From assembly GCA_964016885.1 (NCBI GenBank), contig OZ024746.1, positions 82,150,001-82,214,000 of the forward strand: a stretch of DNA of 64,000 bases, in the 5' to 3' direction. This DNA comes from Eledone cirrhosa (lineage: Eukaryota). Position 1 is the first letter of the stretch, and every line of letters starts with the position of its first letter. The position numbers and the translations under genes are program-made. The notes under the pieces were generated by a model. That model had not been told where the DNA came from. It saw only the letters and a list, made by a program, of their open reading frames with translations, and did not search any database. Below, in pieces: positions 17,656-40,484 of the stretch.

Positions 17656-18804
17656 CAAAATGTAGCTTGCTTTTTTCGTGAACCTTTTCGCTTTCCGAGG
17701 GGGTGTGTGCCTCCATTTTGTTTTTTCAAAGAATTTTAGGGGAATAATTTACAAACGTAATTGCAATATTCGGGCCCAAGACCAAAATATTATGAGGTCA
17801 TCTTTTCTGGGGACAGTGTATGACGCTCTATTTACAGTTTATAACAAAGACTTTAACAAGAAACGTTATACAAACAAGTGAAAAACAACGCTTACAGGGT
17901 AAATGTATACATGACAATTACTTGAGAAACCAATAATAATAATAATTGTTTCTACTTTAGGCACAAGGCCAGCAATTACCCAGTACAATAATAATGAGTG
18001 GTACAGACGATATGAACTAAGTGTGAATTACCGGAAGGATGAAAGACTAAATCAATTTTATCATGACTCGGATTTATATTTGTAAAGTTCTTATCCTAGT
18101 AATACTGAGAACATCTAATTTGGAGCGATATATCTGAACCCGATATTAAATCTAAGTACAGTTGGACAAACAAACGTTCAATTATGTAATTATGATATAT
18201 TAGCACACAATTGGCTTCCATTTCGTTAACCTGTATACTTAGTTCTTTGAAATGTTCATTCAGTACAAATTCTTTAAAAGGTTATATCAGTCCTAAACAT
18301 ATCTGCATCTTGTTCGACTAAAATCCATTCTAAAACTGCTTTTCGTCTTTCGGGAATGCATTATAATGAGTGGAAAGAAAGGTTGTGTCTCGTAGCTCAA
18401 CTTATCGCTATATTCATTGAGACGCCTACTTGCTAAGAAATGTGTGTGGGAAATGCAAGCTAAAATTAGATGTGCATATTTGTCTCGCCTACCTTACCGG
18501 AAATAAGTAATTTCGTAGTATTAAGGAATCGAAGATGGAAACGTCAGGAAGATATTTCTTTTAGTGAAATCTAATGGATTAGGCGGCTTCTGGGAATACG
18601 TTAATTAGGTTAAAGATTCGAGATAGATATACTGATGTGAATAGTAAATTAATAATCAAATCTATAGTGATGGAAACTATTAGGATATTTTAATGAGGTT
18701 AGAATTCATAGGTTTTAACCTTTCTTGTTTTTAGCAATTGTCAGTGCTCACAATGCCAGTTACCAAACATACATACATACATACATACATACATACATAC
18801 ATAC

Positions 18805-18955
18805 ATGGTGGCTGCCAACTCGTTTTCGAGTACGGCCACTACTTTACATCCATGTAGGAGAACCCCTACCGATGCGCTGAACGAGTGTGACTTTTTAGTC
18901 CAGCCAAAGACTTGAAAACTCTGGTATAAACACTACACTTGTGACAATTATTGAC
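18805..18955 (-). mobile_element. RTE-derived non-autonomous element family 1, 5'-truncated
   Basis: Matches the 3' part of 27312-27925; embedded in (TACA)n. Confidence 0.85.
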
Positions 18956-19199
18956 ATACATACATACATACATACATACATACATACATACATACATACA
19001 TACATACATACATATGCATGCATACATACATATATACATACATACATGATGGCTACCCCCTTCATTATCGAGTATGTCCATTGTACGAAAAAAAAACATA
19101 ATAACGACAATAATAATAATAATAATAATAATAATAATATATATATATATATATATATATATATATATATATATATATATATATATATATATATATATA

Positions 19200-19684
19200 C
19201 AGGGAGTATAACTTGGCTTGGAGTTACTGTAGGTTCACCCGGGTGAGCACTCGATGTATAGGTTCACTTCTGTGTTGAGGTGTAGAGCTATACAGAGTGT
19301 ATTATATTGAAAAGATAACAAGGACCATTGGTTACTCCTTCATTACATTTATTGGTAGGTGACGCGCGTTTCGCCACTGATCAGCTCAACGTTCGATCTG
19401 TATCGATCTTACCCGACTCAATAATCCGCAGCTCGGCGGACCCCTTAAAATGGTAGTAGAAATTTTTTTTTTTTTTTTTTTTTTTCTACAAGCATCTTTT
19501 CTCTTTTTCTACTAGCATTTTGTTTTTCTACTAGCATTTTAAGGGGTCCGTTGAGCTGAGGATTATTGAGTCGGGTAAGATCGATACAGATCTAACCTTG
19601 AGCTGATCAGTGGCGAAACGCGCGTCACCTACCAATAAATGTAATGAAGGAGTAACTTATCGTCCTTGTTATCTTTTCAATATA
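19200..19684. mobile_element. Family E PLE-like element with ~160-bp inverted arms and HHR 3' half
   Basis: Arms 19304-19462 and 19525-19683; GAAA-cgcgcg-TC at 19615-19626 (palindromic stem III, GUC); (TA)n flanks. Confidence 0.7.
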
Positions 19685-20199
19685 TATATATGTATATGTG
19701 TATATATATGTGTATATATATATATGTGTATATATATATATGTATATATATATATATATATATATATATATATATATATATATATGTATATATATATATA
19801 TATATATATATATATATATATATATATATATATATATATACATATATATATATATATATATATATATACATATATATATATATATATATATATATATATA
19901 TATATATATATATATATATATATATATATATATATATATATATATATATATATAGTGTGACGGTATTTTAACGATAGTTATAGCTCTGATTTATCTGAAT
20001 TATTGAGCCCTCTGCCGCTCATTTCGAATTTTGTTTATCGTGAACTCGTGCGCCGATTTTTCGATACTCGATCATTCTAATATATATATATATATATATA
20101 TATATATATATATACACACACACAAACATATACACATCTATATATACACATACACATACATACAAACGCGCGCGCATGCACACGAAAACATTTAACAGT

Positions 20200-20356
20200 T
20201 CTGCGATCGAATATGGCTTTTTAGCCCAGCCAATGATCTAAAATGTCTTGTACGGAGTTGGCAACCAAAACATTCACTCGTTCACTGGGAATAGCCGGCT
20301 GTGGCTGGAGTTCATGTACTTTTGCATATCGTTTGAGCCCTCCTGCTGATTTACAT
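20200..20356 (-). pseudogene. RTE LINE C-terminal zinc-finger fragment
   Basis: rc CKSAGGLKRYAKVH followed by a second degenerate finger with a .SLAGLK-like segment; abuts (TACA)n. Confidence 0.5.
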
Positions 20357-36815: not shown

Positions 36816-37404
36816 TAATCTGTTATTTTAATAAATATAATATATATATATATATATATATATATATATATATATATATATATATATATATATATATATA
36901 TATATATATATATATATATATATATATATATATATATATACATATGCATGTATGCATGCATAAGTCAATATGGGAGACACGTCTTACTTGTCAGATCTAT
37001 CTTACATTTGTAAGTGGCATAAAAATGGCAGTGGTGTAATTAAAATTAGAACATGCAATAATGGGAAATATAATTGGCTTTTCTCAATTATAGAAACGAA
37101 TGAAGAGAACAATATTTCCATTACAACTTATTATATCTGTTCGTTATTGCCCCTAATAAATGATATCTGCATATATAAGTAGGCAAAATAAACACGGCAA
37201 ATCTTTCATTATGATTTCCAATTTCATGTTCATTAGAGAGATGGATATAAACAGACATTGAGACAGAGAGACGGATGGATAAATATTATGATAAACAGAT
37301 AGATAGATAGAGGAATAGATAGATAGATAGATAGATAGATAGATAGATAGATAGATAGATAGATAGATAGATAGATAGATAGATAGATACATACATACAT
37401 ATAT

Positions 37405-37741
37405 GATGATGGTTGCCCCCTCATTATCGAGTATGGCATTATTAATAATTATTAATAATTATTAATTAATTCTATCGTGCAATGCCTGTGCGTGAAGATA
37501 TTTTTTAAAGTGAGGAAATACTGTGCACTGAGCCAATCCCACTCTCTGGGCGACAGTAGCTGTAACCCGAAAAGAAGAAAAGATCAACATCATCGGTAAC
37601 TACTGAGCCGCAGGTTTTATATCGGAGCTAACCCAGTTTCCTCAATTGCCTTCTCCTAGAAGAATGTCCTGACAAAAGCTAGGGGTCCTTCACTCCCAGT
37701 GGTTTAACCGCGCGATCGGGTGTCCAGGCCGACTATTTCTA
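37405..37741 (-). mobile_element. RTE-derived element family 2
   Basis: Homologous to 21541-21870; TACA flanks. Confidence 0.8.
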
Positions 37742-39013
37742 ACATACATACATACATACATACATACATACATACATACATACATACATACATACATGAA
37801 GGGAGATAGATAGAGATGTACCGATGGAGATCCGGTACATATGTGGGGGGGCGTGTGTGTGTGTGTGTGTGTGTGTGTGTGTGTGTGTGTGTGTGTGTGT
37901 GTGTGTGTTAAGTATTTCCGAAGAAAAAAGTAAAGGAAAAAGAGTGCTCTATGCACTCTTCCTAAATTATTTAACCAATTATAGATTTTATATGGATATA
38001 GAGCATAGACTCTTCGTGTCATTGTGATGGTGATTGTAAGCTAGAGTAAATAAAGATATGTTATGTTTTAAAAAACTGTCCTCTAAGCATATTCAAGTGA
38101 AAGTGAAACACCTATAAGATGTTAATTTTATCAGTAGATAGTATGTCATTATCAGACATGCCTTCCAGAGCTGATATATCTACCTCAACTTAAATTTGTG
38201 GGTATATATATATATATATATATATATATATATATATATATATATATATATATATATATATATATATATATATATATATCTGTATGTACACACACATACA
38301 TACACACACACATACATACATACATACATACATACATACATACATACATACATACATACATACATACATACATACATACATGCATACATACATATCTATC
38401 TATCTATATATATATATATAGATAGGTAGATGTGTGTGTGTGTGTGTGTGTGTGTGTGTGTGTGTGTGTGTGTGTGTGTGTGTGTGTGTGTGTGTGTGTG
38501 TGTGTGTGTGTGTGTGTGTGTGTGTGTGTGTGTGTGTGTACGTGTACGTGTGTGTTTTATATCAATGTCGTGTTAAGTGGAACAATTTTCCTATATTTTA
38601 AACGGAGAGATGACCAATAATCTAAGATACATACTCACAAGAATTTGGAAATTATCGATTTAACGCGTTAAACAACTCTATAATTCATATGTATCCCAGT
38701 AAGATTTTCTGCAAGATACGTGCAGCTATTATTGCTATTGTGTTTACCAAATTCTATAGTTATCATATATTATCTTAAAATCATTATCTTCACAGAAATA
38801 CAATAGTGTATTTTTCGGTAGAAGTATATAACCACAAGATTAGCTTTGTTACGAAGAAAAAGAAATGTTATATTCTCTTCTGTTAGCTCTTGACCTACAA
38901 ATGAAAGTTTTAACTCCAAGTATATTATTGATTTATTTATGTAATGTCACTGTTTATGTATGTATGTATGTATGTATGTATGTATGTATGTATGTATGTA
39001 TGTATGTATGTAT

Positions 39014-39400
39014 GCCAAGGCAGAATTCTAGGAGAAGGAAAACTCTGATATAACACCTGCAACCCTGATGGTATCCAATGATGTTGACTTGTTCTTCATT
39101 TTGGTAAATATCATCTTGGTTAAGAGAGTGGGACTGGCTTTGTGCAGTGCCTTTGCTCACTATAAAAGCTTCACGGCACAGGCATTGCTTTGTATCTGGA
39201 GATCTCTCTGCACTTGTCGTCACATGGTACCATGGGCCCAGCACTATATGTCAATAATTGTCACAAATGTAGTGTTTGTACCAGAGTGTTCAAGTCGCTG
39301 GCTGGACTAAAAAGTCACACTCGTTCAGCGCATCGGTAGGGGTTCTCCTACATGGATATAAAGTAGTGGCCGTACTCGAAAACGAGTTGGCAGCCACCAT
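39014..39400 (+). mobile_element. RTE-derived element family 1
   Basis: Reverse-complement copy of 27312-27695, flanked by (TATG)n. Confidence 0.88.
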
Positions 39401-40484
39401 GTATGTATGTATGTATGTATGTATGTATGTATGTATGTATGTATGTATGTATGTATGTATGTGTGTATATATATATATGTGCGTGGGTGTGAGTATGCGG
39501 GTGTATGTGTGTTCTTATATTAACAAAAAATAATTTCATCTTGATGTTCGCGTTCATCTTGTGTATGACATCATTTAAGAAAAATAACACAACTCTTCAA
39601 TTTTACCCAGAAACTTTTAGCTTTGCAAAACTTTCACTTTTGCTGGGGCTGTTTGTATTTCCTACTACGTCCAAGTTTCAATCTTTTGGATCAATTCCAA
39701 AAGAGGTTCCGAGATTTATAAAACTCTGGGATCCACCAATGATATACAAGACTCCTTTGAATATGAGGACAGATGAAGCTCCTGATTCCTAGCAGTCTGT
39801 GTCAGTTAATTTACAATTAGATAATACTTTCATATTCAAGTCATTATCTGTTTTTAGAACTGTATCATTCGTATCATTCGTAAAGAACAATATCAACTCC
39901 GAGGAAATATGCATGAGTCACTTCGAGGCTATTGTAGACATCACTTTCCCAAGATGGCACTCACTGAGAGAGAATTGGAAATCGTATGGCTGCAAAACTA
40001 CGCCTGCGTCTATTTATATATATATATATATATAACGAAGAAAACATTCTATTTCTACCTAAGTATGCTTGGGGTTTCCTCTATCTTAGTTCGTAATTGG
40101 GAAGGTGATACAGCCGAGGTCTACTCACCTGGGTTGTGAGGAGGTTCGAAGGTAAGATATGTCCTATATATTCTGTGTTTACACGAGGTAACGAGTTCAT
40201 CCTTTTTGTTTAACAATTGATCCTTTGCAAACAGCATCTGGATATATATATATATATGATTCACAACTAACCATCTATTCGCTCTGTTACACTTCTTCTT
40301 CTTCTTCTTCTTCTTCTTCTTCTTCTTCTAATTGACCTCGGCGAGATTTAAACTCAGAACGTAAAGAGCCGGAACAAATACTGCAAAACCTATTCTGATT
40401 ATATAAATTATTGTGAGATTTACGTTAACTAGGCAAATTACAAGTTAGTTAAAATGATATTTAAGAAACATTTAAAACATTAAC

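Follow-up and report, generated by a model that had tools for sequence, protein, structure and literature searches.

The window analysed here is a 64,000-nucleotide stretch of Eledone cirrhosa DNA (contig OZ024746.1, positions 82150001-82214000, within a searched genome of 3.0 Gb). Its (TACA)n arrays are occupied by two classes of retroelements that lack long terminal repeats (non-LTR): Dong-like long interspersed nuclear elements (LINEs) of families D1 and D3, and an RTE class consisting of an autonomous RTE-type LINE and the non-autonomous families A and B. Most of the 12 copies lie in two continuous nests, 18767-23630 and 26387-28001. The four Dong-like copies (20466, 22885, 26477 and 34963) that an initial annotation had placed on the TACA strand were all present with that polarity, as were the eight RTE-class copies that it had placed on the TGTA strand. 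Both tail-to-tail joins it described (21523/21541 and 27222/27312) were real, and two head-to-head joins were also present, at arrays 20352-20465 and 22817-22885. Two copies were redrawn. The copy at 19046 does belong to the RTE class, but what had been called a short derivative is the 3' end of an autonomous LINE with its coding part at 20092-20356; the copy at 39014 was confirmed, but 39013 is its truncated 5' end and its 3' end is at 39399.

18767-18805: (TACA)n array bounding nest 1 on the left
18806-18956, minus strand: family A, non-autonomous and RTE-related, 5'-truncated (element positions 460-610)
18954-19047: (TACA)n array
19047-20356, minus strand: 3' part of an autonomous RTE-type LINE with apurinic/apyrimidinic endonuclease (APE) and reverse transcriptase (RT), 77-78% identical to the LINE at locus L166; two colinear pieces, the 3' untranslated region (UTR) end (19047-19200) and C-terminal coding sequence (20092-20356), split at its internal TG/TA/TAA tract
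19200-19680: palindromic hammerhead-family element (inverted repeat) in the TA tract of the LINE 3' UTR; canonical core in its relative L319
19955-20080: second TA-flanked repeat, inserted in the same LINE 3'-UTR tract; copies in L309 and L312
20352-20465: (TACA)n array at the head-to-head join of the RTE LINE and D1
20463-21520, plus strand: Dong-like D1, 5'-truncated, with CCHC finger, restriction-like endonuclease (RLE) region and 3' UTR; 98% identical to the full-length copy L125
21523-21542: (TACA)5 at the tail-to-tail join of D1 and B
21542 to about 21884, minus strand: family B, an RTE derivative of bipartite build in which a LINE 5'-UTR piece is joined to the LINE 3' end
21886-22122: (TACA)n array, in part the internal repeat tract of B
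22123-22453, minus strand: family A, 5'-truncated (278-610)
22492-22820, minus strand: family A, 5'-truncated (283-610)
22817-22885: (TACA)17 at the head-to-head join of A and D3
22883-23546, plus strand: Dong-like D3, 5'-truncated
23546-23630: (TACA)n array bounding nest 1 on the right
26387-26477: (TACA)22, left edge of nest 2
26475-27222, plus strand: Dong-like D3, 5'-truncated
27222-27313: (TACA)23 at the tail-to-tail join of D3 and A
27313-27922, minus strand: family A, full length, 610 bp
27925-28001: (TACA)19 on the 5' side of the full-length A
34854-35154, minus strand: D3 piece of 3' UTR only (34964-35154) beside a degenerate array (34854-34963)
37388-37797, minus strand: family B copy (37407 to about 37741), bordered on one side by a short TACA run that follows (AGAT)n and on the other by the array 37742-37797
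38955-39476, plus strand: family A copy (39013-39399) lying between two TGTA arrays

The polarity seen in the window held across the genome. Copies were pooled mostly from the best-match loci of the queries, together with those of a random sample (80 hand-spaced 10-kb stretches, 800 kb in total) and of the window, and were de-duplicated. Read on the element strand, the 3' flank of Dong copies was CATA in 96/106, TA in 2 and TATG in none, and that of RTE-class copies was TATG in 118/150, TA in 18 and CATA in 2. Each of the 62 cross-class pairs linked through a repeat was opposed, and repeat-joined pairs of one class were co-oriented in 23/23 (Dong-Dong) and 37/42 (RTE-RTE) cases. The initial annotation was supported in naming the elements Dong-like and RTE-derived, in giving them a common target and in describing their polarity as fixed and opposed; the genome-wide orientation check that had been proposed gave a clearly non-random result. 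The pooled cross-class joins comprised 43 head-to-head and 19 tail-to-tail cases, a count not used as a test because the loci were query-chosen and included five paralogous pairs. Five head-to-head A/D1 junctions on C10 (26.05-26.30 Mb; L188-L190, L195 and L196) are nearly identical, recur every 50-70 kb or so and probably represent a segmental tandem duplication.

The two classes differed in target range. The first bases after the A 3' end were TGTA, TATA or TATG in 93/101 copies, with TGTA alone accounting for 65/101. Exact whole-genome counts, taken in one phase only and with most mixed flanks skipped, gave 7,765 A ends followed by (TGTA)3, 6,044 followed by (TA)6 and 298 followed by three TAYA units with at least one C. 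The RTE class occupies both (TA)n and TACA-type arrays, whereas Dong is almost limited to TACA. The proposal of a TACA niche separate from (TA)n is not supported, given this double use and the 6,044 A ends that run into (TA)6.

The Dong-like elements form two RLE-bearing LINE families with full lengths of about 4.2 kb (D1) and 4.1 kb (D3), and all 16 full-length 5' ends were preceded by CATA. An intact single open reading frame (ORF) of 1169 aa is retained in the D1 copy at L125, encoding RT, a CCHC zinc finger and a C-terminal region whose motif, read by eye, we take to be of the RLE type. In the Pfam scan of this ORF, RVT_1 was matched at 6.6e-25 and zf-RVT fell below the cut-off; AP endonuclease was not found, nor was a Myb/SANT-like domain, for which no dedicated profile comparison was made. 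Its best PDB matches were R2 proteins, and among homologues of the Dong-like protein that bear a species name, the closest belonged to Argonauta (65%, covering 60% of the query). A Myb/SANT-like domain at the N terminus is described as a feature of the R4/Dong clade (PMC7998251, available in excerpt, as are most papers cited here). Among the 26 of 80 metagenome relatives whose flanks were checked, 13 of the distant ones, about 30% identical, had (TAA)n shortly downstream of the ORF, and the two closest (L349 and L350) had (TACT)n and (CTTA)n at the 5' side, pointing to a tetranucleotide-targeting lineage. An RT tree, in which no named Dong, R4, R2, NeSL, HERO or RTE references were included, placed D1, D3 and the TACT/CTTA-flanked relatives in a 100/100 subclade among TAA-flanked RLE elements. 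D1/D3 and the unnamed (TAA)n-flanked RLE elements were together separated from three APE-type outgroups at 99/96.

Family A is a discrete non-coding element of 610 bp with fixed ends and 5'-truncated copies. Family B, its sister, measures about 620 bp; at least two more sister families are built in the same way (L018, L046, L199, L041, L127 and L146). An APE-RT LINE at a random locus (L166) terminates in the 3' end of B. The ORF of this partner LINE begins shortly past the 5' UTR and matches RVT_1 at 2.1e-28; its homologues, mostly 1,000-1,200 aa, carry PF03372 and PF00078, and none bears an RTE name. It has one APE plus RT ORF and no separate ORF1, as expected of RTE elements. In the RT tree it paired at 98/92 with a DUF6451-bearing LINE, on long branches and with no named RTE reference. 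DUF6451 and the APE motifs are characters that we take to be linked to RTE/BovB. The LINE is accordingly described here only as RTE-type, a putative label resting on domain layout, on these motifs and on its grouping with the DUF6451 element rather than on a named reference.

Positions 268-576 of B were 90-91% identical to the LINE 5' UTR in four of seven loci, the other three being truncated there, and the last 40 or so nucleotides of B matched the LINE end. B therefore consists of 5'-UTR and 3'-end segments of its partner LINE and contains no ORF, the layout of a bipartite non-autonomous RTE element. A shares the 3' hairpin and is 67-69% identical to the 5' UTR of this LINE; a closer LINE partner specific to A was not found. 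Searching for the partner with PF00078, PF03372 and PF20049 yielded instead a CR1-like family as well as two other families of the RTE type, which shared no ends and were rejected. By eye and among the matches listed, these two other RTE-type families mostly end in short GAAT or GAGTCT repeats of their own, without such arrays. No Rfam match was obtained in the whole window at the gathering threshold, and at E up to 10 around A only repeat-driven matches appeared, with no known ribozyme or tRNA head detected. Some target tracts are carried by the elements themselves. Two TA-seeking elements separate the LINE 3' end from its coding piece in the copy at 19047-20356, and the internal TATG-like tract of B (about 200-270) received a B insertion in L096. 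Such tracts in the LINE 3' UTR and within B are a small, real provision of targets.

Several hundred bases upstream of the LINE 5' UTR, comprising a piece of short interspersed nuclear element (SINE), a unique stretch and a TA/TG run, are common to L342, L344 and L348, suggesting 5' read-through from one source locus. L335 contains tandem RT fragments with a period of 2,456 bp. At 35546-36440, a non-coding element of about 895 bp has TGTA on both flanks and A-like motifs; its sole relative among the loci compared (L069/L126, 70% over 170 bp) lies on the opposite array strand.

A repeat made by an element's tail is found on one side, within the target-site duplications (TSDs), while a target repeat pre-exists (Tay et al. 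2010, PMC2887409). Flank repeats were scored as tracts of at least 12 nt in copies with both ends in view (125 of the RTE class and 76 Dong), leaving out B copies that start in the internal tract and LINE pieces that start in the 3'-UTR tract. In the RTE class, the repeat lay on both sides in 99 copies, upstream only in 12, downstream only in 12 and on neither side in 2; the respective numbers for Dong were 58, 3, 12 and 3. An upstream repeat was present in 111/125 RTE-class and 61/76 Dong copies, compared with 268/2000 in the background. Median upstream and downstream tracts were 67 and 45 in the RTE class (p=0.25) and 56 and 39.5 in Dong (p=0.62). The downstream repeat mirrored the upstream one, with TGTA downstream in 91/97 copies when the upstream side was TGTA-rich versus 7/14 otherwise (p=1e-4). 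Of 14 candidate TSDs in the RTE class, 5 left 0-2 nt between element and TSD. The RTE class as a whole lacks the 3'-side-only repeat inside TSDs by which Tay et al. recognize seeding. Because 6,044 A ends run into (TA)6, against 7,765 into (TGTA)3, and because the repeats are two-sided, the RTE class has no obligatory TGTA tail; some copies may add a short one. The suggestion that (TGTA)n tails of RTE elements create the arrays was not borne out, given the repeat on both sides and the roughly 6,000 A ends directly before pure TA.

With 7 paralogous loci left out, Dong was found beside 62 focal A/B copies 8 times on the 5' side and 4 times on the 3' side (p=0.39), and an RTE-class neighbour stood beside focal Dong copies in 7/35 (5') and 7/41 (3'). 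Among 31 random arrays of at least 4 pure units, 9 touched the RTE class only, 7 Dong only, 2 both and 13 neither. The lack of an excess of arrays touching both classes had been set beforehand as a ground for refuting the RTE-driven loop; in this small sample, 2 were seen against 3.2 expected under independence (p=0.43). Median divergence of non-focal copies was 4.5% in D3, 3.6% in B, 2.0% in A and 1.5% in D1, and on these values Dong activity brackets the A wave, D3 being older than A. With D3 older and no Dong bias to the RTE tail, the supposition that Dong came afterwards to arrays made by RTE elements is not supported. A search for nested copies returned two matches, a B inside the internal tract of B and one overlap artefact, and nesting cannot order Dong and RTE. 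Neighbour sides, co-occupancy and divergence all fail to fit niche construction begun by RTE elements.

We consider it probable that each class inserts independently and strand-specifically into pre-existing (TACA)n arrays and would prime from different strands. Under target-primed reverse transcription, Dong would nick and prime on the TATG strand with its restriction-like endonuclease, and RTE, with its AP endonuclease, would nick after A and prime on the CATA or TA strand. Priming on one strand of an asymmetric repeat would fix polarity, so that two classes could only be co-oriented or opposed; the opposed arrangement is one of these two outcomes, needs no interaction between the classes, and would yield tail-to-tail and head-to-head joins automatically. 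Each insertion would also split an array into two new targets, building nests such as 18767-23630. Through G:T wobble, an RNA end of the UGUA type would be able to pair with CATA primers and TA primers alike; for a CAUA end, pairing with TA would be impossible. Pairing of this kind between RNA and primer would account for the wider range of RTE, a hypothesis consistent with the excerpted text of PMC6007223.

Several observations weigh against independent insertion into pre-existing arrays. Half of the copies with a TGTA-poor upstream side (7/14) still begin with TGTA downstream, and 9/14 RTE-class candidate TSDs leave 6-30 nt, either a tail or a chance repeat match. Among Dong copies the repeat was downstream only in 12/76 versus upstream only in 3. 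The co-occupancy test had low power, and most copies were best matches, not random picks. In the random sample, 11/14 pure arrays of at least 8 units touch a Dong or RTE-class element, which is predicted by target splitting and equally by insertion-driven growth. No empty allele skipping nest 2 occurred among the matches listed (four read runs, three of them from one sample), and the pre-existence of the arrays therefore rests on the two-sided flanks. The unseen empty site, the element-adjacent long arrays and the Dong downstream-only excess together leave room for insertion-driven array growth by either class. The initial annotation's statement that RTE elements extend arrays survives only in a weak form, since any TSD-forming insertion splits and lengthens an array and this would apply to both classes.

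A stronger reading, which we regard as doubtful, is that an RTE-clade LINE has turned into a true microsatellite-targeting element and, with a tetranucleotide-specific Dong, multiplies its own targets from opposite strands; long (TACA)n would then be mostly the joint product of mutual niche construction. Somewhat less likely still, both classes might lengthen short seeds symmetrically by target duplication and repeated priming, with long pure arrays mostly insertion products and Dong at least equal to RTE as builder. The 11/14 element-adjacent arrays, the 12 to 3 imbalance in Dong and the 6-30 nt unexplained in some candidate TSDs would suit such growth. However, upstream and downstream tract lengths were alike in both classes, inspection of the one-sided Dong cases revealed, in several, an upstream run that was short or slightly displaced, and alternating purine-pyrimidine tracts already make up 80 kb of the 800-kb random sample (about 10%).

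The loop first proposed, in which RTE-derived (TGTA)n tails create arrays that Dong then targets in a niche separate from (TA)n, is already largely refuted and we hold it to be very unlikely. RTE tails do seed microsatellites in Lepidoptera (PMC2887409), and TGTA opens the 3' flank in 65/101 A copies; however, the 12/125 RTE-class copies with a downstream-only repeat are equalled by 12 with an upstream-only one and outnumbered by 99 with both, and (TA)6 directly follows 6,044 A ends. The absence of a tail-side bias in Dong and of a co-occupancy excess, the greater age of D3, the 13/31 random arrays that adjoin neither class and the hammerhead-family element inside the RTE copy at 19200 all stand against this loop. 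Least credible is near-random insertion of the RTE class without active targeting, its copies surviving or priming more readily in harmless repeat-rich DNA: the genome is rich in alternating repeats and Drosophila Waldo-A/B have been proposed to accumulate passively (PMC3812793), but this is at odds with the junction enrichment (111/125 versus 13% background), the fixed first base (93/101 A copies), the fixed polarity, and the two other RTE-type families, whose ends, by eye among the matches listed, are mostly GAAT or GAGTCT repeats of their own with no such arrays.

The absence of hammerhead elements from TACA arrays, also noted initially, was true of immediate flanks. Among 294 ends of five TA-associated families, 133 abutted TA, 2 TACA-type repeats, 10 other alternating repeats and 149 no repeat, the last number reflecting probes that cover one end only. 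These families avoid TACA at their immediate flanks, but the hammerhead-family copy at 19200-19680 lies inside a TACA nest. Because the RTE class uses both repeats and this copy sits in the TA tract of the LINE, the (TA)n and TACA niches overlap. A first hammerhead scan gave no convincing motif in the window, and a second showed the canonical core, in L319, for only one of the five families; one core base is altered in the copy at 19200-19680. Penelope-like elements are biased to (TA)n (Craig et al. 2021, PMC8557442), and the window's TA-flanked, palindromic and partly hammerhead-bearing repeats behave alike but here share (TA)n with the RTE class.

Microsatellite-specific non-LTR elements are already known, and the pattern described here is real, genome-wide and mechanistically ordinary. 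For Octopus vulgaris, recent activity is listed for Dong-R4 and RTE families (PMC13282606, where the word 'target' is absent), and in snakes LINEs are known to seed microsatellites (PMC8303610). The R4-clade Dong elements (Bombyx Dong, DongAg, snail DongBg and ostracod Dong1/2) resemble D1 and D3 in their single ORF with RT, CCHC finger and restriction-like endonuclease and in microsatellite insertion with the repeat on both sides. Published Dong targets are (TAA)n (PMC3812793, PMC7998251); by contrast, D1 and D3 target (CATA)n, with CATA at 96/106 3' flanks, and so depart from Dong in the strict sense. Like the bipartite RTE elements Bov-A, RTESINE and WALLSI3 (Kojima 2018, PMC5786205), B combines a LINE 5'-UTR piece (about 90% identical) with the LINE 3' end and has no coding sequence. 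B differs in an extra 5' segment of about 200 bp, unmatched in the seven LINE loci, and in a strong two-sided microsatellite preference that is not described in the excerpts of PMC5786205.

RTE 3' ends also adjoin microsatellites in Lepidoptera (PMC2887409) and in the insertion signature of RTE elements (Nishiyama and Ohshima 2018, PMC6007223), where, as here, the first target base matches the repeat (the T of TGTA), a match consistent with the model of tail-guided priming. There, as far as the excerpts go, the repeat is one-sided and inside TSDs, whereas here it is two-sided and differs from site to site, being TA or TGTA. In the R1 clade, the Waldo elements WaldoAg1/2 and WaldoFs1 are AP-endonuclease LINEs on (ACAY)n microsatellites (PMC3812793, PMC4640811), including (ACAT)n, the same repeat as here. 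They belong to another clade and host, and target sharing with an RLE element is not described in the excerpts of PMC3812793. Our literature search found no CATA-specific Dong and no two-sided microsatellite-targeting RTE in octopus; Repbase and the primary Kojima and Fujiwara papers lay outside its scope and may record such targets. The present elements add a four-base-repeat Dong-like lineage and an RTE-type family with a two-sided TA/TATG preference to the target-specific non-LTR elements. With two kinds of endonuclease on the opposite strands of a single duplex, the system provides a natural test of what determines target choice: the endonuclease or the 3' end of the RNA. Microsatellite markers in this genome call for caution, as their flanks are often repetitive.

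Two further repeats were seen in the window. An inverted duplication of about 2 kb surrounds (TA)n 32698-32759 at 31680-33800, as judged by eye and from paired SINE matches. At 29502-30352 there are 13.7 tandem copies of a 62-bp unit that resembles the head of a tRNA-derived SINE.

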